DNA of 64,000 bases from assembly GCA_964512835.1 (NCBI GenBank), contig CAZELA010000001.1:105372-169371 (forward strand), read 5' to 3'. Position 1 is the stretch's first letter; every line of letters starts with the position of its first letter. Below, piece after piece: positions 3,729 to 45,840 of the stretch. The translations under genes were made by a program, and so were the position numbers. The DNA is from an uncultured Candidatus Saccharibacteria bacterium (GTDB lineage: Bacteria; Patescibacteriota; Minisyncoccia; Phycocordibacterales; UBA2100). The notes under the pieces are model-generated. The model saw nothing but the letters and a program-made list of their open reading frames with translations, searched no databases and was not told the origin of the DNA.

Positions 3729-4715
3729 ATGCTGAATCCCGACATGCACATACGTGATGACTGGGCCGCCGTAACCGAAAAGGGTGCCACCCGCGACGGC
3801 TTCGGGAAGGGGGTCGTTGAGGCGGGGCGCGCCGATGAGCGCGTTGTTGTGTTATCCGCAGACCTCGCGGAATCCACGCGGGCTGAATGGTTTCAAAAAG
3901 AATTTCCGAAGCGGTTCATAGAGATCGGCGTTGCAGAGCAGAATCTCGCGACCGTTGCGGCAGGAATGGCGAATTACGGAAAGATCCCGTTCTTTACTTC
4001 GTATGCCGCATTTTCTCCCGGACGTAACTGGGAACAAATCCGCACCACGATCGCACTCAATGATGTGCATGCGGTTGTATGCGGCATGCATGCAGGCATT
4101 TCCGTCGGTCCCGATGGTGCAACCCACCAGATGCTCGAAGATATAGCGATTATGCGAGCGCTACCGAATATGATTGTGATCTCCGCGTGTGACGTCGAAG
4201 AGGCACGAAAGGCAACCATTGCGGCTGCTACGGTAGGAAAGCCTGTCTATATGCGTTTCGGTCGCGAGAAAACGCCCGCGATCACGACCGCAGAAACGCC
4301 GTTTGTGATCGGGAAAGCAAACGTGCTCATATCGCACGATGCACCGAAGGTTGCACTGTTTGCGACCGGTCCGCTCGTGCATGCCGCACTTGTTGCCGCG
4401 TCCGCGCTCGAACAGGAGGGTATTCCGGCCAGCGTGACCAATGTTCATACGATTAAGCCGCTTGATGTGGAGACCATTGCTCGCGAGGCGTCGCGTGCCG
4501 GTGCTGCCGTCACTATAGAAGAGCATCAGACGACCGGAGGAATGGGTAGTGCCATAGCCGAAGCGCTCGCACGCACGACACCGGTTCCGATGGAATTCAT
4601 CGGCGTGCAGGACAAGTTCGGACAGTCCGGTACACCGGACGAGCTGTACACCCATTACAATATGGACGCTGCGCACATTATCGAAGCTGCAAAGAAAGTT
4701 ATTTCACGAATATGA
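3729..4715 (+). CDS. transketolase, C-terminal subunit (pyrimidine-binding and C-terminal domains)
   Basis: FIEIGVAEQNLATVAAGMA, PDGATHQMLEDIAIMRALPNM, FIGVQDKFGQSGT motifs. Confidence 0.9.
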   Translation: MLNPDMHIRDDWAAVTEKGATRDGFGKGVVEAGRADERVVVLSADLAESTRAEWFQKEFPKRFIEIGVAEQNLATVAAGMANYGKIPFFTSYAAFSPGRNWEQIRTTIALNDVHAVVCGMHAGISVGPDGATHQMLEDIAIMRALPNMIVISACDVEEARKATIAAATVGKPVYMRFGREKTPAITTAETPFVIGKANVLISHDAPKVALFATGPLVHAALVAASALEQEGIPASVTNVHTIKPLDVETIAREASRAGAAVTIEEHQTTGGMGSAIAEALARTTPVPMEFIGVQDKFGQSGTPDELYTHYNMDAAHIIEAAKKVISRI

Positions 4716-5868: not shown

Positions 5869-6552
5869 ATGCAGAAATGGATTCAAAATACCTGGCTCGT
5901 CATCTTGGCGATGTGGGAACCATTCCACCGGCTGCTCGTGTCGTTCAAGTGGCCGATCGCATTTGCGGTCGCCGCTATCGGATCGGTCGCGGCGCTCGCG
6001 ATCGTTGGATTCATGTGGTGGGAGGATGCCTTCAAGCACAAGAAGACCGTCGACGAAAAGCGTATCGAGACCGTGCAGAAGCTGAGGGATGATGAGCGGA
6101 CGTATCTCGCGACCGCCATCATTCGCGATGCGATGCTGACATCGGAACCGATCCGCGTACAGGAAGGTGTCGGTTGGGCTGTCTTGAACTATCGCAAGAA
6201 GTTCAACGTAGATATCCCGACCATCGTGAAAAATTCACTCACGATGCTGCCGTTGAATCACAAAGGCGGCGGACCGTTACTCCCGACGAGCAGTCGCTTC
6301 GTGATGAAAGAGGCGAGCGACGGGCAAATCACCGAAGCGTACGCCTTGGCTGACCGCCTCGTCGCGATGCAGGCCGCTGTCCTTTCGGATCCGGCACTTT
6401 CGTGCGCAACACAATATGTGCGCAAGAAGCGGATCACCTGGTCGCCCTCGAAGGAAATCGTCGAGAAATTCGAGTCATCCGAATACAAGGAGGTGCCGAA
6501 GAGCAACGCTCCGAACCCGGGTGACGGCAGGTTCTTCTGCTACGCAAAGTGA
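5869..6552 (+). CDS. hypothetical membrane protein
   Basis: RBS gggggt; two N-terminal TM helices; no recognisable domain. Confidence 0.55.
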   Translation: MQKWIQNTWLVILAMWEPFHRLLVSFKWPIAFAVAAIGSVAALAIVGFMWWEDAFKHKKTVDEKRIETVQKLRDDERTYLATAIIRDAMLTSEPIRVQEGVGWAVLNYRKKFNVDIPTIVKNSLTMLPLNHKGGGPLLPTSSRFVMKEASDGQITEAYALADRLVAMQAAVLSDPALSCATQYVRKKRITWSPSKEIVEKFESSEYKEVPKSNAPNPGDGRFFCYAK

Positions 6553-6573
6553 TCTGACTCACGCTCTTTGATC

Positions 6574-40626: not shown

Positions 40627-41508
40627 ATGGCGGACATCGCCGCGGCGCTTGCCGCTTTCACGCTCGCTCTATGGTCGCTCGGTATCGTGCTCATGAGCAC
40701 GGTGTATCAAGAGACCGGTGTACTGCTTGCGGCACTCGGGTTTCTGACCGGAGTGATGCACGCGATACTGCAATGGCGATCGGCGAACTCGGAATCGCAA
40801 CTTCAACCTGAACGTACAGAAAGGAATGAAACCATGACTGCACCCGAAGCTTCGGCTGCACAGCCGGTCCACATTCACCCGATGGTGGGGAAGGAGAGTC
40901 ACTTCGTCGCGTGGGTCGGATTCTTTTCGACCCTGTTGGTGAGCTTGCTCATCTTCTCGATCCTGACCGGCAACTGGATCCCGCCGACGTTCGCCATCGG
41001 TGACGCGTCGGTCGGCCCGGAGACGTACATCCCGATCATGGCGATGATCGTCTATCACTACCAGGTCAAGGTCTCGCTCGAACGTCCGGACACGCTCTTC
41101 TACGCGTGGCTGGATCTCATCGGCTCCGTGCTTCCGTTCGCGATCGCATTCATCGCGATCATGTCGTGGTTCCCGGCGGTCCGTTGGATCTTGGAGACCA
41201 TGCGGCTCTGGATCACGCCGTACACCACGCTGACACTGGTGACCGCCGGCACGTATCTCATCCTCTCGGCATGGGACGTGTTCTGGAATCACTGGCGTCG
41301 GTCGCGTGTGTTTGGGCATGGCGGCGGCGCGAGCAATGCGTTCATCGATGATGTCATCATCGGGCAGGGGGTCTCGCGCAAGCGCGTCATGCCGCTCGAG
41401 ATCATCTGGGAACCGCAGCACTTCGTGCAGCAGCCCGACGGCACGCTTCGTCGCGTGCAGCCCGAGCTGATCGAGCAGCAGACCGGTCCGGCGCCGGAGA
41501 CCCACTAA
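40627..41508 (+). CDS. hypothetical polytopic membrane protein (high GC3)
   Basis: GGAGGG RBS; 6-7 TM; flanked by the split halves of the 5757 hairpin. Confidence 0.6.
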   Translation: MADIAAALAAFTLALWSLGIVLMSTVYQETGVLLAALGFLTGVMHAILQWRSANSESQLQPERTERNETMTAPEASAAQPVHIHPMVGKESHFVAWVGFFSTLLVSLLIFSILTGNWIPPTFAIGDASVGPETYIPIMAMIVYHYQVKVSLERPDTLFYAWLDLIGSVLPFAIAFIAIMSWFPAVRWILETMRLWITPYTTLTLVTAGTYLILSAWDVFWNHWRRSRVFGHGGGASNAFIDDVIIGQGVSRKRVMPLEIIWEPQHFVQQPDGTLRRVQPELIEQQTGPAPETH

Positions 41509-41536
41509 ATACGGCTCTACGACGAGCTCTTTCGAC

Positions 41537-41572
41537 CCGGCGGCACAGCGATGTGCCGCCGGTTTTCTATTT
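41537..41572 (+). terminator. rho-independent terminator of the hairpin-TTTTCTAT type, abutting a TTGACAAA promoter
   Basis: CCGGCGGCACA-gcga-TGTGCCGCCGG followed by TTTTCTATTTGACAAAAG. Confidence 0.75.
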
Positions 41573-41599
41573 GACAAAAGTGATTTTATATGATACTTT
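41571..41599 (+). promoter_or_regulatory. promoter TTGACAAA-N17-TACTTT
   Basis: TTGACAaaagtgattttatatgaTACTTT. Confidence 0.45.
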
Positions 41600-41659
41600 A
41601 TCTGCGGTCTCTTTCCGTACAGGAGAGGGTTTTACAGTCACACAAACATGGGAGGCGTA

Positions 41660-42301
41660 ATGGCCGCTCCGGTATCACCGGGATCGCGATGGCGTATCCC
41701 GATCGTCACACCGCAGCCGTATGTCGTGCCACCTCGGCCCGTGCATGCAGCTGCTCCGGTAGTTTCCAACCAACAGCCTTCCTCGCACGAAGATGCGCGT
41801 ATGCGCGGCTTCGAGGACGGCAGGGCATATCAACGAAATGGAGGTCAGAATATGTCTGCGAAGGCCGACGACCACGGACATCACGGCAGCGGTCCGCCCG
41901 AGGGGGTAAAAAAGGCCCTCTGGTGGATCGGGGTGATCCTGATTGCGTTCCTGTTGTTCAATTGGTTCACGACCGCCTGGGATCGGTTCACCGATCCTGT
42001 CGGCTTCCGCGCCAATGAACAGCAGCGCGTGATCGACGATCTGAAGGATCGTCTGCGCGCGTACCAAAGCGGCGATGTCGGTCCGAGCCCTCGCGGTGGC
42101 ACGGGCGGCAACATCTCGCGGCTCGGAAACAACAATGCGCCTCGTCAACCGACGGCACAGGAGATCTGGGATCGTACGTTCCATCGCACGACCAGTACCT
42201 GCGCCCCGTGCGATCAGACCAGGGGATGGAATTACATCCAGGACCCCGAAACCTGTCAGTGCGATGCGGCTCGGTGGCGGCCTGGTCCGCCCCCGCGCTA
42301 A
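41660..42301 (+). CDS. single-pass membrane protein with a C-terminal Cys4 domain (CAPCDQTRGWNYIQDPETCQCD), paralog A
   Basis: GGGAGG RBS before ATG 41660; central TM helix; the last 34 aa are identical to 42482..42979. Confidence 0.6.
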   Translation: MAAPVSPGSRWRIPIVTPQPYVVPPRPVHAAAPVVSNQQPSSHEDARMRGFEDGRAYQRNGGQNMSAKADDHGHHGSGPPEGVKKALWWIGVILIAFLLFNWFTTAWDRFTDPVGFRANEQQRVIDDLKDRLRAYQSGDVGPSPRGGTGGNISRLGNNNAPRQPTAQEIWDRTFHRTTSTCAPCDQTRGWNYIQDPETCQCDAARWRPGPPPR

Positions 42302-42342
42302 GTGATCTTTCGTCCTCAAATCGAAACAATTGCGGGGACATG

Positions 42343-42375
42343 CAGACGGCTAGCGATAGCCGTCTGTTTCTTTTG
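42343..42375 (+). terminator. rho-independent terminator
   Basis: CAGACGGCTA-gcga-TAGCCGTCTG followed by TTTCTTTTG. Confidence 0.7.
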
Positions 42376-42381
42376 TAGCCC

Positions 42382-42409
42382 TTGACAAAAAGGGTAAATA
42401 TGGTAATAT
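42382..42409 (+). promoter_or_regulatory. promoter TTGACAAA-N16-TGGTAATAT
   Basis: TTGACAaaaagggtaaataTGGTAATAT. Confidence 0.55.
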
Positions 42410-42481
42410 TCTCATTAGAAGGGAGGTACCATTCGGTGCTTTCCGCTTCACATCACACAATTACAGAAAGAGGAGTGGCCA

Positions 42482-42979
42482 ATGAACAGGCTTATCGTTG
42501 CTCTCTGTGCGATTGCGTTCTTCGCATTCGCATCGCTCGGCACGGCGTCCGCGCAATACGGAGCCGGTGTCGGCACCGGCGGTACCATGGCTCTTCGCCA
42601 GGGCGTTCCGCATGCCCAGACTGTCTACGAGGACCAATGTCGGCGCATCGGTGCATATAACCATCCGATGTGCATGACCGGTCAGCGTCGTGGTCACGGC
42701 CATGGTGTTCAGGGCCGTCGCGTGATCCCGGTTTTCGCGACCGGCGCACACTACGACCGTCGCGTGGCAGCTGGGCACTACGGCCGCACAGCCGTGGTTC
42801 GCCCCGTGGCACCCCCGCCGCCCCCGCCTTCGGCACAGCAGATCTACTCTGCAGTGCCGCACAAGACGGTCAGCGTCTGCGCCCCGTGCGATCAGACCAG
42901 GGGATGGAATTACATCCAGGACCCCGAAACCTGTCAGTGCGATGCGGCTCGGTGGCGGCCTGGTCCGCCCCCGCGCTAA
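42482..42979 (+). CDS. secreted protein with a C-terminal Cys4 domain, paralog B
   Basis: AAGAGGAG RBS; signal peptide; His/Arg/Gly-rich middle; Pro7 linker; identical C-terminal 34 aa. Confidence 0.65.
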   Translation: MNRLIVALCAIAFFAFASLGTASAQYGAGVGTGGTMALRQGVPHAQTVYEDQCRRIGAYNHPMCMTGQRRGHGHGVQGRRVIPVFATGAHYDRRVAAGHYGRTAVVRPVAPPPPPPSAQQIYSAVPHKTVSVCAPCDQTRGWNYIQDPETCQCDAARWRPGPPPR

Positions 42980-43019
42980 GTGATCTTTCGTCCTCAAATC
43001 GAAACAATTGCGGGGACAT

Positions 43020-43052
43020 GCAGACGGCTAGCGATAGCCGTCTGTTTCTTTT
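43020..43052 (+). terminator. rho-independent terminator (duplicate of 42343)
   Basis: Same hairpin within repeat copy 2. Confidence 0.7.
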
Positions 43053-43059
43053 GTAGCCC

Positions 43060-43087
43060 TTGACAAAAGGGGTAAATATGTTAATAT
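43060..43087 (+). promoter_or_regulatory. promoter TTGACAAA-N16-TGTTAATAT (duplicate)
   Basis: Within repeat copy 2. Confidence 0.55.
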
Positions 43088-43147
43088 GGCAGAGGAAGGT
43101 AATCACATCCGTGATCTACCCGAAATGGCAACCATCGGAGGAATACC

Positions 43148-43537
43148 ATGCAGATTCGTATCGCCCTTGCCCTCGTGCTCGCTCTCGCCACGACCTCGGT
43201 CTACGCTCAGGCGCCCAAGAGCTACAATCCGGGACGTGTCGAGGTCGCTGCTCCTCAGCAGCAGGTGCCGCCCGCGATCGCGAAGGCGAACGCCCAAGCT
43301 GCTCCCGCTGCTCCCGCTGCTCCCGCTGCGCCGGCCCCCAAGGTCGACCGCGCCGAGGAAGCTCGCCAGGAGATCGCGCAGTGGCACAAGGCCCGCAAGG
43401 ACTGCTACAACGCGCTCGGCCTCAAGGAAGGTGTGCACTATCGTCTGAATCCGGCGGATGCGAACAACTACCAGGTGCTGAAGCAAGCGCACTTGATGTT
43501 CAACTCGGCCGGCATCACGAAGTGCGACGCCATCTGA
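43148..43537 (+). CDS. small secreted protein (129 aa, 2 Cys, PAA repeats)
   Basis: GGAGG RBS; signal peptide; high GC3; the stop is inside CTGATCTTTCA. Confidence 0.6.
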   Translation: MQIRIALALVLALATTSVYAQAPKSYNPGRVEVAAPQQQVPPAIAKANAQAAPAAPAAPAAPAPKVDRAEEARQEIAQWHKARKDCYNALGLKEGVHYRLNPADANNYQVLKQAHLMFNSAGITKCDAI

Positions 43538-43552
43538 TCTTTCACTACCGGA

Positions 43553-43630
43553 GGGGTGTGTCGGCAACGACACACCCCACCACACTTCTCGTTGAGATCT
43601 CTGTGTCCGCGTACAACGTGCACACAGAGA
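43553..43630 (+). terminator. two consecutive stable hairpins (no clean U-tract)
   Basis: GGGGTGTGTCG-gcaa-CGACACACCCC, then TCTCTGTGT-15 nt-ACACAGAGA. Confidence 0.4.
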
Positions 43631-43668
43631 CCCCAGTGAGGGTCGGATAGCACACAAGGGAGCAATCA

Positions 43669-44172
43669 ATGCGTGCGATCAAAAATGTTCTTTGCGTCGT
43701 TGCTCTTGCGCTGTTCAGCCTCACCTCCATGGTGAACGCCGCATGCGTCGAGCAATCAAAGCGGGGCCCGTTGCCCAGTGGATACGAACCTGTGCGGATC
43801 GTGTTCGCTGCGGCACAGGACGATCGCGTGTCGGATGACACGAAGGAATCGACCCTGCGCTTCCTTGTCGACGGCCTCGTTCGCGTGGCATTCGACAAAC
43901 TCGGACACGTCAAACAGGTCCATCAGTGCAGCTTCGGAAATGGGTCTGTGCTGAAGAATCAGACGTTCGTCCAGGTCCGGTACGTCAAAGTGCCGGGGAA
44001 TGATGATCTGATTCACGGGGAATCGTGGATCGGCCTGCCGAAACAGGCGATCGCGTCTAAACCGAATGTGGGCGTCGAGCTCACCTCGGGCACCGAACTC
44101 AAGGGTGTCTGGGGGAGGTCGAATGCTCACGGCCGTGAGGTCGCGACCATCACCATCAGTCCGGTCGACTGA
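43669..44172 (+). CDS. hypothetical secreted protein (167 aa)
   Basis: AAGGGAG RBS; signal peptide MRAIKNVLCVVALALFSLTSMVNA. Confidence 0.6.
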   Translation: MRAIKNVLCVVALALFSLTSMVNAACVEQSKRGPLPSGYEPVRIVFAAAQDDRVSDDTKESTLRFLVDGLVRVAFDKLGHVKQVHQCSFGNGSVLKNQTFVQVRYVKVPGNDDLIHGESWIGLPKQAIASKPNVGVELTSGTELKGVWGRSNAHGREVATITISPVD

Positions 44173-44197
44173 TTTGACCAACGGCCGAAACCATTGT

Positions 44198-44241
44198 GCG
44201 GGAGGGCAAAGTCGTGTACTTTTGCCCCCCGCATTTTCTAT
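44198..44241 (+). terminator. rho-independent terminator of the hairpin-TTTTCTAT type
   Basis: GCGGGAGGGCAAA-9 nt-TTTGCCCCCCGC followed by ATTTTCTAT. Confidence 0.7.
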
Positions 44242-44250
44242 AAGAATTGC

Positions 44251-44279
44251 TTGACAAACTAGGAATCGTGTGGTAATAT
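44251..44279 (+). promoter_or_regulatory. promoter TTGACAAA-N17-TGGTAATAT
   Basis: TTGACAaactaggaatcgtgTGGTAATAT. Confidence 0.55.
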
Positions 44280-44340
44280 AAACGGGTCGAAAATTATTCA
44301 CTTTTTATTGGAGATTTAGAAGACGTTAAACAAAAAAGTT

Positions 44341-45840
44341 ATGACAAATGTATCGAAAAACATGCTCTTTGCCTTCTTGGTCGCCGTAAGTGCAACAGTG
44401 CTTTCATTGGGTGCATTTGCCACGACTGTTCACGCAGCTGACTTCGACGGAGGTTCCTTCGACGGAGGCGGCTGGTACGACGCCGGCTCATTCGGCGGCG
44501 GTGGTTTCTACGACGCGGGTTCGTACTCCGGTTCCGACTGGTACGATGCCGGTTCGTACAACAATGGCGGTTTCTACGACGCGGGTTCGTACAGCGGCGA
44601 TTTCTACGACGCTGGCTCACAGAACAGCGGTTGGTATGACGCCGGTTCACCGAATGGCGGCTGGTACGATGCCTCGACCGGTTACTGGGAGACTGACTCG
44701 TACAATCCGGGCTACTATGAAAAGGATTCGTACAACCCTGGGTATTATGAGACTGACTCCTACAATCCTGGTTACTACGAAACTGATTCGTACAACCCTG
44801 GTACCTATCAGACTGATTCGTACGTAAGCTCGTACATGGATCAGTACGCAGCAGGCAACCCGATCATGTCGGGCGGCAGCTACGGAGGTGGTTCGTACGG
44901 CGGTGGCTACACCACCGGCGGTGGGTACAGCATGCCGAGCATCAGCACCGGCGGCTGCACGACCTGCCACTCACAGAGCTACCCGAAGCCTGTTCCGACT
45001 CCGGTCTGCACAACCTGCAATCATCCAGTCCCGACTCCGACCTGCACGACCTGCGGCGGATCAAGCGTGACTAACACGAACATGTGGATCGATAACTCGA
45101 TCATCGACAACTCGATCAACGGTTCGTTCAACACCACGATCAAGGACAGCTACAACACGACCATGCTTACTCCGGTCGTACCGCAGCAGCCGATCGTGTA
45201 CACCCAGCCGGCACCGTACTGTGTGATCACCTTGCAGAATGCGGGTGCATACACGGCACAGGCAACGCTCGTATGGTCCTCGACGAATGCACAGTCCGCG
45301 TACATTACGCAGGTGGGTTCTGTAGCTCCGAACGGCACTCGAGTTGTTACCGGCTTCGCGAATCAGATGTACTCGCTCACGGTTACCGGTCAGGGCGGCA
45401 CCTACACGTGCAATACCCAGCCGTACACCCCGACGTACATCCCGCAGGCTCCGATCACACCGTCTGTCTCGCTCACGCAGATCCCGTACACGGGTCTCGC
45501 ACTGAGCCCGATGGCACAGGCGATGTACTGGCTCGCGCTCCTCTCGGTCGCAGCAGCAGGTGGTTACTTGCTCGTCTACTACAAGGGAGGCGCACTTGCT
45601 CTCGCAGGTGCAATGAACCGCCTGACTGCGCAGGCAGGCCGACAGAATCACTTCGTCGTCTCTGAACAGGAGACCGAGGAAGTGATTACTCCGGAAGCAG
45701 TTGAGACCGAAGAGGTCGCAGCTCCGACCGTAGACGCAATGAGCTTCCTCCCTGCGATGCAGGAAATGAAGACCCGAGATGTCATGTCGGTCATGCACTC
45801 GGAAGACGGAACCCCGCGACTCGTCATCGCACGCGCGTAA
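44341..45840 (+). CDS. secreted repeat protein with an IPYTG sorting-signal-like segment, a TM helix and an about 80-aa C-terminal tail
   Basis: Signal peptide; (F/W)YDAGS and DSYNPGYYET repeats; Cys/Pro/Thr spacer (CTTC x3); a domain alignable to the C-terminal domain of 33010..34977; TQIPYTGLALSP + TM + YYKGG. Confidence 0.75.
   Translation: MTNVSKNMLFAFLVAVSATVLSLGAFATTVHAADFDGGSFDGGGWYDAGSFGGGGFYDAGSYSGSDWYDAGSYNNGGFYDAGSYSGDFYDAGSQNSGWYDAGSPNGGWYDASTGYWETDSYNPGYYEKDSYNPGYYETDSYNPGYYETDSYNPGTYQTDSYVSSYMDQYAAGNPIMSGGSYGGGSYGGGYTTGGGYSMPSISTGGCTTCHSQSYPKPVPTPVCTTCNHPVPTPTCTTCGGSSVTNTNMWIDNSIIDNSINGSFNTTIKDSYNTTMLTPVVPQQPIVYTQPAPYCVITLQNAGAYTAQATLVWSSTNAQSAYITQVGSVAPNGTRVVTGFANQMYSLTVTGQGGTYTCNTQPYTPTYIPQAPITPSVSLTQIPYTGLALSPMAQAMYWLALLSVAAAGGYLLVYYKGGALALAGAMNRLTAQAGRQNHFVVSEQETEEVITPEAVETEEVAAPTVDAMSFLPAMQEMKTRDVMSVMHSEDGTPRLVIARA
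44452..44821 (+). repeat. in-frame tandem repeats (about 21-24 bp YDAGS units, then 30-bp DSYNPGYYET units)
   Basis: Read directly from the sequence and its translation. Confidence 0.7.

Follow-up and report, generated by a model that had tools for sequence, protein, structure and literature searches.

Two neighbouring genes, referred to here as A and B, share an almost identical 210-bp tract across their 3′ ends in a 64-kb stretch of DNA (the window) from an uncultured CPR bacterium, and this tract most probably (a probability of roughly 0.8) reflects recent gene conversion within an old pair of tandem paralogs. In the proposed event, non-reciprocal homologous recombination would have replaced the 3′ end of one gene (33 codons), its terminator and the promoter that follows with the homologous stretch of the other. 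The tract would begin inside a C-terminal protein module and end exactly at a predicted –10 box, each gene keeping its own, orthologously conserved sequence beyond these ends, and the module and its terminator-promoter would evolve in concert within each genome. The process itself is ordinary concerted evolution.

Organisation of the locus

The features of the locus, with the basis for each in brackets, are as follows.

41537-41562: terminator of the upstream 293-aa gene, just before the promoter-like site of gene A (terminator search)
41571..41599, + strand: promoter-like site of gene A, TTGACA-N17-TACTTT, preceded by TGA (read from sequence)
41660..42301, + strand: gene A, 213 aa (ORF and GGGAGG Shine-Dalgarno read from sequence; hydropathy)
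42149..42298, + strand: C-terminal module of A, 50 aa, comprising a PTAQEIW helix, H, C1-AP-C2, x14, C3-Q-C4, W and PGPPPR (family alignment; AlphaFold2 pLDDT 88.8)
42200..42409, + strand: identity tract copy 1, the last 33 codons of A, TAA, terminator and promoter of B (repeat search, in-register comparison, BLAST)
42342..42367, + strand: predicted intrinsic terminator of A, 11-bp stem, GCGA loop and UUUCUUUU tail (sequence; stem covariation)
42382..42409, + strand: predicted promoter of B, TTGACA-N16-(TGG)TAATAT (sequence; boxes invariant in relatives)
42417..42450, + strand: predicted stem-loop at the 5′ end of the B mRNA, in its leader; it is conserved with B orthologs and not part of the identity tract (folds of orthologous leaders)
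42482..42979, + strand: gene B, 165 aa (ORF, homologs, hydropathy)
42827..42976, + strand: C-terminal module of B, 50 aa, the last 33 as in A (in-register comparison; family alignment)
42878..43087, + strand: identity tract copy 2, the last 33 codons of B, TAA, terminator and promoter of the 129-aa gene (repeat search, in-register comparison, BLAST)
43020..43045, + strand: predicted intrinsic terminator of B, 11-bp stem, GCGA loop and UUUCUUUU tail (sequence)
43060..43087, + strand: predicted promoter of the 129-aa gene, TTGACA-N16-(TGT)TAATAT (sequence)
43148..43537, + strand: downstream 129-aa signal-peptide gene, preceded by the copy-2 promoter (ORF; syntenic neighbour in all relatives)

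Gene A encodes a conserved N-terminal cytoplasmic part, a DDHGHH motif, a single hydrophobic, transmembrane (TM) helix (residues 86-104 by hydropathy), a short coiled segment, a Gly-rich linker and the C-terminal module; its product is identical to NCBI protein P0005/P0009 and has a full-length ortholog of 40% identity (P0021, contig L090). Gene B starts with a signal-like helix that ends at ASA, directly before Q, followed by a conserved two-Cys N-domain (VYEDQCRRIGAYNHPMCMTG), a His/Arg/Gly-rich linker, six prolines (previously counted as seven) and the module. A would be a bitopic membrane protein with an extracellular C-terminus and B a Sec-exported soluble protein; in both, the shared C-terminal module of ~50 aa would be displayed outside the cell. 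The first-pass annotation had described unrelated N-terminal parts, with a TM helix in one protein and a signal peptide in the other, and sequence and hydropathy bear this out. The two genes probably belong to a cluster of monocistronic genes for envelope or secreted proteins, made up of a 293-aa membrane protein, A, B, the 129-aa gene and a 167-aa gene, in conserved order.

The predicted terminators consist of a G+C-rich hairpin and a following U tract, located downstream of the stop codon. The stem of the terminator of A covaries across eight homologous intergenic regions, and the –35 and –10 boxes of the B promoter are likewise unchanged in eight. Judged as sigma-70-type promoters (a –35 TTGACA and a –10 TATAAT-like hexamer at a spacing of 16-18 nt), the predicted promoters match 10 of 12 positions and carry the TGn extension; five such sites are observed in the window against 0.01 expected. 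In single-sequence folds, five orthologous B leaders adopt a similar structure, in which the sequence of the apical stem differs from one leader to the next. No Rfam family was found in 41400-44400.

Extent and contents of the repeat

In-register comparison of 42200-42409 with 42878-43087 gives two mismatches in 210 nt (99.0% identity), 42391 A vs 43069 G and 42403 G vs 43081 T, the first 191 nt being a perfect match; the repeat search of the window scored the same repeat as 222 nt at 97%. This agrees well with the earlier description of a repeat of 212 bp and about 98% identity that carries a gene 3′ end, a terminator and a promoter. Each copy holds the last 33 codons (CAPC...PPPR), the TAA stop with GTGATCTTTC directly 3′ of it, the intrinsic terminator and a TTGACA-N16-TGnTAATAT promoter. 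Two further details of the earlier description need correcting, in that the identical coding part is 33 codons rather than 34 residues, the residue just before it being T in A and V in B, and the cysteine spacing is C-x2-C-x14-C-x-C rather than C-x2-C-x17-C-x-C.

Identity within the tract covers synonymous and non-coding sites, and its edges are sharp, the flanks falling to approximately random-level DNA identity. Homology between A and B continues upstream of the tract for ~17 more codons in a weaker form, at ~47% amino-acid identity (PTAQEIWDRTFHRTTST vs PSAQQIYSAVPHKTVSV). A mobile repeat of the MITE or REP-like kind was considered and rejected, as BLAST finds only two copies in the 64-kb window, both at homologous gene ends. 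The repeat search found no terminal inverted repeats at the repeat apart from the terminator palindrome.

The arrangement in independent metagenome contigs

It is extremely improbable that the repeat is an assembly artefact, whether through collapse or expansion of a repeat or through a chimeric join within the metagenome-assembled genome (MAG). Metagenome assemblies do go astray at this point: L002 and L003 skip gene B via a single repeat copy, L089 begins exactly at the repeat edge and L095 is a chimera with its break inside the repeat. However, JGI contigs from four other samples hold the unique junctions, with A, copy 1 and the B leader joined in L004, L005 and L088, and B, copy 2 and the leader of the 129-aa gene joined in L088 and L089; L088 spans the entire arrangement. 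The copy-specific SNPs, 6 and 18 nt from the right edge, each occur with the correct flank in independent contigs, and the gene order is the same in relatives. The misassembly that the first-pass annotation had wanted excluded is thus countered at both junctions by independent metagenome contigs.

Recombination between the 210-bp copies could in addition excise gene B, a functional use of the direct repeats that would produce a population polymorphism of B+ and B– cells and change the secreted partner. L002 (sample 3300045394) and L003 (sample 3300045378) represent exactly the predicted deletion product, namely a single repeat copy with the copy-2 SNPs between the A-specific left flank and the copy-2 right flank. 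The short path of a de Bruijn assembler through the 191-nt exact repeat gives an identical product, however, and a deletion, being irreversible, would not amount to classical phase variation; excision is unlikely. Its product would put A, with the same tail as B, directly upstream of the 129-aa gene. Near-identical repeats in MAGs call for caution, as they can lead to skipped genes (L002, L003) and chimeric contigs (L095).

Gene conversion within an old paralog pair

The A-B pair occupies the same syntenic position in the diverged relatives L001, L086, L087 and L090 (the B gene lies off the L090 contig), all of them Patescibacteria contigs in which each gene ends in the module, with a homologous hairpin and a TTGACA promoter coming next. 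A orthologs with the module and a homologous terminator-promoter behind it are present in L001, L086, L087, L090 and L092, and B orthologs of the same kind in L001, L086, L087 and L091. Because pair, module and terminator-promoter are already syntenic in these relatives, A and B are, to judge from the few, short contigs compared, old tandem paralogs that predate the divergence of these lineages. Scans of genome contigs and of metagenome contigs with the B alignment gave no matches, nor did a homologous-protein search with an eight-module alignment; the same search with protein A returned only A itself, a metagenome scan with the four-Cys modules gave one marginal locus, and 0 of 80 loci in a ThrRS-based genome scan had A/B homologs. 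The best match in the ThrRS scan, at 68% identity, belongs to Ca. Paceibacterota, and the window is assigned to a Paceibacterota-like member of the Patescibacteria with a small genome.

The relatives contradict the earlier view that the two paralogs arose through a recent tandem duplication of 212 bp. Such a duplication, or a cassette insertion, would have newly provided an unrelated gene with the Cys domain and its terminator and promoter, and is suggested by a 99%-identical tract beside unrelated N-terminal parts; the module also sits on diverse N-termini, and twice in one protein (P0028), which implies that shuffling occurred at some time in the family. It is nevertheless very unlikely as the origin of this paralogy, given that A and B orthologs already bear the module in the same place, and the ~17 weakly conserved codons upstream of the tract imply that an older shared module received it.

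The tract is read as gene conversion because in the window, L086 and L001, three lineages of the four, module and intergenic sequences group with those of their own genome and not with those of the same gene elsewhere. Over the last 50 codons, A and B of the window are 84% identical to each other and at most 52% to any other sequence, and those of L086 are 80% identical, each being the other's closest match. Intergenic identity within a genome is 77% in the window, 73% in L001 and 63% in L086, each again the best pair, and neighbour-joining (NJ) bootstrap values are 100 for the window pair, 100 (coding) and 87 (intergenic) for the L086 pair and 100 (intergenic) for the L001 pair. The pair in L087 does not cluster, so conversion would be episodic rather than universal. 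Near-identical sub-tracts of ~85 nt in L001 and ~60 nt in L086 were found, and partial homogenisation appears to have happened independently in related lineages; the homogenised tract is also present in strain L088 (99.4% identical). Grouping by genome could in principle stem from repeated independent replacement via another route.

The direction of copying was probably from A to B. Only three members, window A, window B and the A ortholog P0021, have a four-residue insertion (C2-x14-C3), and x10 is seen in the remaining A- and B-type members; copying towards B is suggested since the single A ortholog shares x14 and the B orthologs have x10.

A comparable unit has been described in the tandem lpl cluster of Staphylococcus aureus, where an ORF 3′ end, the intergenic region and the next 5′ end evolve as one unit (Tsuru & Kobayashi 2008, PMC2568036). 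In both cases tandem genes encode exported, host- or envelope-related proteins, an ORF 3′ end moves or co-evolves with the downstream intergenic region, and recombination between paralogs makes similarity within a genome exceed orthology. In contrast to lpl, the pair in the window consists of only two genes, with unrelated N-terminal halves and only the 50-aa C-terminal module shared, the tract stops at the –10 box without the 5′ end of the next ORF, and the host is an uncultured CPR bacterium.

The C-terminal module

A family in which the N-termini vary and a conserved, exported Cys module forms the C-terminus, as proposed earlier, does exist: HMMER gives 28 hits, on signal-peptide and TM-anchored architectures, export being predicted. 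In the family alignment the module is ~50 aa long and always at the extreme C-terminus, with varied N-termini; P0028 carries the module twice, and at one locus three consecutive genes encode it. Neither Pfam nor NCBIfam has a family that matches the module above threshold.

Cysteines follow one of two patterns among 30 modules, CCCC in 15 and -C-C in 15, and Cys1 and Cys3 are always lost together (0 of 30 lose just one). Because the two are lost only together, the pattern argues for two disulfides (a putative C1-C3 and C2-C4 pairing) on a β-hairpin rather than for zinc. Of the three natures proposed for the domain in the first-pass annotation, the disulfide form is therefore the one supported by the cysteine pattern. 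A zinc knuckle is disfavoured, half of the family (15 of 30) being without Cys1 and Cys3 and the proteins being predicted to be extracytoplasmic. An AlphaFold2 model of the module from 28 sequences (pLDDT 88.8) has a helix at residues 5-11 and strands at 31-33 and 40-42, and full-length B, from four sequences, was modelled poorly (pLDDT 54). The module would consist of a short helix, then a β-hairpin stapled by the two disulfides, and a PGPPP tail.

A sorting tag, the third nature proposed, would be in keeping with LPXTG, PEP-CTERM and GlyGly-CTERM signals, which, like the module, are lineage-restricted and occur strictly at the C-terminus of exported proteins whose N-termini vary. Unlike these, the module has neither a hydrophobic helix nor a basic tail after the motif, and has a predicted helix and hairpin fold (pLDDT 89). 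A sortase- or exosortase-type signal was rejected, as the end ...WRPGPPPR is without a hydrophobic stretch and has no NCBIfam match.

Resemblance to the VEGF heparin-binding domain

The sole Pfam match for A (E 2e-4) and B (8e-5) is VEGF_C (PF14554), which the isolated module also matches (1e-5); the scores of 21.6, 23.0 and 25.8 bits are below the gathering threshold of 40 bits, and the match is limited to positions 2-27 of the 54-position profile. A BLASTP comparison with residues 111-165 of human VEGF165 gave 10 identities in 21 positions, with the same C-x2-C-x14-C-x-C spacing and QDPxTCxC in both, hhalign of the module with the VEGF domain a probability of 56%, and Foldseek against the PDB two VEGF heparin-binding domain structures (4DEQ, 1VGH) as top matches. 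The VEGF N-lobe disulfides are reportedly Cys117-135 and Cys120-137, a pairing that the putative C1-C3/C2-C4 of the module would share. The linkers are strongly basic.

Window proteins thus resemble the VEGF N-lobe in their C-x-P-C ... QDP-x-T-C-x-C motif and spacing, two-stranded hairpin, putative disulfide pairing, predicted extracellular C-terminal position and basic context. These likenesses would fit a true homolog of the N-terminal lobe that binds polyanionic glycans, but this is a very doubtful reading. The VEGF domain has two lobes with eight Cys and four disulfides, whereas the module matches half of it, has four or two Cys and no C-terminal lobe; the resemblance depends on the lineage-specific four-residue insertion, many members would have a single disulfide, and the PF14554 model matches 4 of 30 modules. 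Being below threshold and confined to the insertion-bearing subgroup of the window, the resemblance is probably convergent.

The PDB profile search returned only EGF-like hairpin peptides, which were not significant (E = 0.2). The two-Cys members (PC-I-x-GY-x-K/Q-N-P-x-x-x-C) resemble insect growth-blocking peptide (PDB 2EQH, 1BQF), in which CVAGYMRTPDGRC forms a disulfide-closed β-hairpin with a G-Y turn. This likeness spans only 16 residues, and the module, unlike EGF-like C-loop hairpins, adds an N-terminal helix and a W-x-PGPPP tail.

Implications

Gene conversion between tandem paralogs is a known process; the probable case described here, from an uncultured bacterium with a small genome, has unusually clean boundaries, and the tract indicates that a terminator-promoter junction can travel along with a protein module. 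The module may serve A and B as a common unit for binding or anchoring, and the two carriers would then have to stay matched. A more specific proposal, and an improbable one, is that the module is a fast-evolving adhesion or ligand-binding hairpin, an analog of the VEGF N-lobe (conceivably related to it), anchored in A and secreted in B on a CPR episymbiont; conversion would keep the carriers matched to one partner, and in some of the cells repeat recombination would turn off the secreted form (the B-less L002 and L003).

More useful is that the analysis defines a predicted extracytoplasmic module, unannotated and lineage-restricted (~50 aa, C-terminal, with one or two predicted disulfides), set in a conserved cluster of surface and secreted protein genes with strong predicted promoters. 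CPR bacteria depend on cell-cell contact, and to our knowledge almost none of their surface or secreted proteins of this kind have been characterised; such proteins are candidates for mediating that contact.

The repeat and its contents

Genes A and B end in the same Cys-containing C-terminal module of about 50 residues, and their 3' ends are embedded in two copies of a 210-nt identity tract.

Features of the locus
41660-42301, forward strand: gene A, 213 aa, TM-anchored
42200-42409: copy 1 of the repeat
42482-42979, forward strand: gene B, 165 aa, signal peptide
42878-43087: copy 2 of the repeat
43148-43537, forward strand: 129-aa gene, behind the copy-2 promoter

Compared in register at an offset of 678 nt, the two copies are identical except at 42391 (A/G) and 42403 (G/T), both of which lie in the promoter spacer; the repeat search gave 222 nt at 97% identity for this pair, and BLAST across the 64 kb detected these two copies and no other. 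Identity is lost abruptly ahead of the Cys1 codon on the left and past the −10 hexamer on the right. This comparison bears out the near-identical repeat of gene 3' end, terminator and promoter described in the first-pass annotation, with the corrections that the shared peptide is 33 rather than 34 aa, that the Cys pattern is C-x2-C-x14-C-x-C rather than one with C-x17-C, and that the proline run of the linker is six residues long, not seven.

Elements of each repeat copy, in order
Final 33 codons, CAPCDQTRGWNYIQDPETCQCDAARWRPGPPPR
TAA stop codon, then GTGATCTTTC
First hairpin, weak
11-bp hairpin with GCGA loop and U-rich tail
TTGACA-N16-TAATAT promoter with TGn extension

The 83-nt stretch containing both hairpins has a folding energy of −26.9 kcal/mol, and the functional contents predicted for the repeat agree with consensus sequences and are backed by covariation in related loci.

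The motif TGATCTTTC[A/G] overlaps the stop codon, or comes right after it, in five forward-strand genes (17991, 38108, 42304, 42982 and 43536), with an intrinsic terminator 15-35 nt downstream of the motif, and the window contains 12 occurrences of GATCTTTC where 3.2 are expected. The variants TGATCTTTC, TGATCTTTG, TGATCCTTG and TGATCTATG follow most orthologous stops in the loci compared from other assemblies (L001, L086, L087, L091, L092 and L094).

Just past the duplicated promoter, the B mRNA leader starts with a conserved 5'-terminal stem-loop (42417-42450), which is also found in the B-gene leaders of L001, L086, L087 and L090. The basal stem GAAGGG/CCGCUUC is kept, and each lineage has its own apical stem sequence (z-scores −2.1 to −4.3); a CATCCG-type loop is present in several leaders of the gene cluster. 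The stem-loop has no match in Rfam; as a 5' hairpin it probably stabilises the mRNA or has a regulatory role.

Independent assemblies

Near-identical JGI metagenome contigs were recovered from six other samples. A, copy 1 and B are continuous in L004 and L005, copy 1, B, copy 2 and the 129-aa gene are continuous in L089, and L088, from a strain 99.4% identical, covers A, B, the 129-aa gene and the 293-aa gene upstream of A. Copy-specific SNPs sit with their proper flanks in the contigs from other samples. The repeat is a real feature of the genome, and the misassembly that the first-pass annotation had allowed for is contradicted by independent contigs carrying both junctions.

Two contigs, L002 (JGI 3300045394, 4323-4532) and L003 (JGI 3300045378, 6349-6558), lack gene B, so that one repeat copy with the copy-2 SNPs connects A with the 129-aa gene, reflecting either a real allele in which B was deleted by recombination or a short path taken through the assembly graph via the exact 191-nt repeat. 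L095 (JGI 3300045395, 533-1315) breaks within the repeat, beyond which an unrelated gene for a TPR protein follows, and its module portion shows numerous G->A substitutions as well as a premature stop codon; this is likely a chimeric, low-coverage assembly.

Probable gene conversion within an old gene pair

B orthologs (proteins P0002-P0004) are 45-51% identical to B in a MAFFT alignment and 41-50% by BLASTP. The gene order is preserved on the contigs of the relatives: in L001 a TM protein is followed by A-type, B-type, 118-aa and 173-aa genes; L086 and L087 contain the end of an A-type gene, then a B-type gene and the following genes; and on L090 genes of 677, 70 and 196 aa are followed by P0021, a full-length ortholog of A (213 aa), and by the beginning of B. 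Both genes of every relative's pair end in the same module (...PSPEEIAxRVxHKxTRTPVPCIxGYVKNxAxxQCDxVxWVPGPDPE in L001, L086 and L087), and a homologous hairpin terminator and TTGACA promoter lie behind both. The shared domain is therefore not a product of the 210-bp event, as the recent 212-bp duplication first proposed would have it, and the A-B pair is shown to be old.

The last 50 codons of A and B are 84% identical in the window and at most 52% identical to those of any relative; in L086 the pair is 80% identical, above the identity of either gene to its ortholog. The within-genome pair is also the best match for the intergenic regions in the window (77%), L001 (73%) and L086 (63%), and pairwise alignments reveal sub-tracts that are almost identical over about 85 nt in L001 and over about 60 nt in L086, and a diverged pair in L087. 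In neighbour-joining trees paralogs cluster by genome, with support of 100% for the window, 100% (coding) and 87% (intergenic) for L086 and 100% (intergenic) for L001. Since the N-terminal parts are orthologous between genomes and unrelated between A and B, this clustering points to repeated gene conversion of the module, terminator and promoter only, which appears to be the only economical explanation, the window holding the freshest tract. Gene conversion within an old pair thus replaces duplication as the probable mechanism.

Upstream of the tract, A and B remain homologous yet diverged over 17 codons (8/17 amino-acid identity), indicating that the tract was copied into a shared module of greater age. 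The homogenised tract is common to strain L088, whose copy 1 differs from that of the window at two bases, one of them in the copy-2 state, so that the event is older than the 0.6% strain split or exchange is ongoing. A 4-residue insertion (x14 spacing) is confined to window A, window B and P0021, and all B orthologs and every other A-type protein have x10; on the simplest reading, A would have been the donor.

The C-terminal module

A module profile search of 1.8 billion representatives (E <= 1e-3) returned 28 proteins, among them P0036, rejected as an unrelated repeat protein. The module lies at the extreme C-terminus in all members and is carried by signal-peptide proteins with R/H/G/Y/P-rich linkers as well as by TM-anchored, N-in proteins in which a conserved Dx(D)HGH motif stands ahead of the helix, a pattern that upholds the earlier description of variable N-termini on a conserved Cys domain. 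L094 (1146-2579) has three consecutive module genes, the first (P0028, 239 aa) with two modules in a single protein, the second a 106-aa TM-anchored form and the third a B-type gene resembling P0023. In P0019 and P0026 a B-type N-domain is joined to different C-termini (...GWSWM and ...GFSWK), so the parts can be combined in different ways. The N-terminal domain of B (42557-42682, residues 26-67; GTGGTMALRQGVPHAQTVYEDQCRRIGAYNHPMCMTG) is almost invariant though the C-modules of the lineages differ by 60%, and is a predicted second, separable two-Cys module.

The module consensus is xxPSPxQIAxRVPHxTTRV-C1-VP-C2-xxGYxQ[DN]PxT-C3-x-C4-xRxxWVPGPPP[RQ]. Four Cys are present in 15 modules, another 15 lack both Cys1 and Cys3, and none has three; this paired loss argues for C1-C3 and C2-C4 disulfides and disfavours a Cys4 zinc site. 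An AlphaFold2 model from 28 sequences (pLDDT 88.8) predicts a helix spanning 5-11 followed by a hairpin formed by 31-33 and 40-42. The module lacks a hydrophobic tail and matches no NCBIfam model, and is therefore not a known sorting signal; of the zinc knuckle, disulfide knot and sorting tag originally suggested, only the disulfide option is supported. The module is an undescribed, clade-restricted domain.

Its sole Pfam match is the VEGF heparin-binding domain PF14554, scoring 22-26 bits where the gathering score is 40 and aligning to positions 2-27 of the 54 in the profile. CxPC-x14-CxC and QDPxTCxC are common to the window module and human VEGF165, with 10/21 identities, and hhalign gives a probability of 56%; however, just 4 of the 30 modules match the model, the VEGF-like spacing is a derived insertion, and the remaining weak matches are generic EGF-like or Cys-rich hairpins such as growth-blocking peptide (E = 0.2). 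Fairbrother et al. in 1998 reportedly placed VEGF disulfides at 117-135 and 120-137. The VEGF domain has four disulfides and two lobes (PMC12439592). The module is not assigned to the VEGF family; the resemblance is treated as convergence on a small double-disulfide hairpin, and an extracellular binding hairpin in a basic context is a possible working analogy.

Genomic context

The window codes for DnaE, GyrB, PheT, ThrRS, SMC and one tRNA, and its ThrRS is nearest to Candidatus Paceibacterota and other Patescibacteria MAGs (<=68% identity). The bacterium is accordingly placed in the CPR, where GTDB offers no close representative. A and B sit among short genes for membrane or signal-peptide proteins, each with its own promoter and terminator, and the proteins of this run have no Pfam or NCBIfam matches. 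Promoters of the TTGACAAA type, close to consensus and with an extended −10 (35044, 37098, 41571, 42382, 43060 and 44251), cluster within 9 kb of monocistronic small envelope-protein genes; the promoter scan gave 5 matches against 0.01 expected, the 41571 site being read by eye outside the scan.

The 499-aa protein encoded at 44341-45840 has the look of a CPR-style surface protein: it starts with a signal peptide, contains GGWYDAGS and DSYNPGYYE in tandem repeats and CTTC three times, and has a C-terminal IPYTGL motif ahead of a TM helix. Antisense ORFs over A (41675-42319, reverse strand, 214 aa) and B (42461-42997, reverse strand, 178 aa) are probably spurious products of a G+C-rich region; JGI annotates an 80-aa minus-strand gene across the B start.

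Proposed mechanism and biological meaning

RecA-type non-reciprocal recombination would begin in existing homology, the module on the left and the promoter on the right, and purifying selection would remove tracts that overwrite the gene-specific leader or N-terminal parts. The process resembles the known concerted evolution of bacterial tandem paralog clusters, with the nearest precedent in the lpl cluster of S. aureus, in which the 3' end of one ORF, the intergenic region behind it and the 5' end of the next ORF evolve as a unit (PMC2568036). A and B would both expose the module extracellularly, A in anchored and B in released form, and homogenisation may keep both fitted to one common partner, for which an envelope or host-surface polymer is our best, low-confidence guess.
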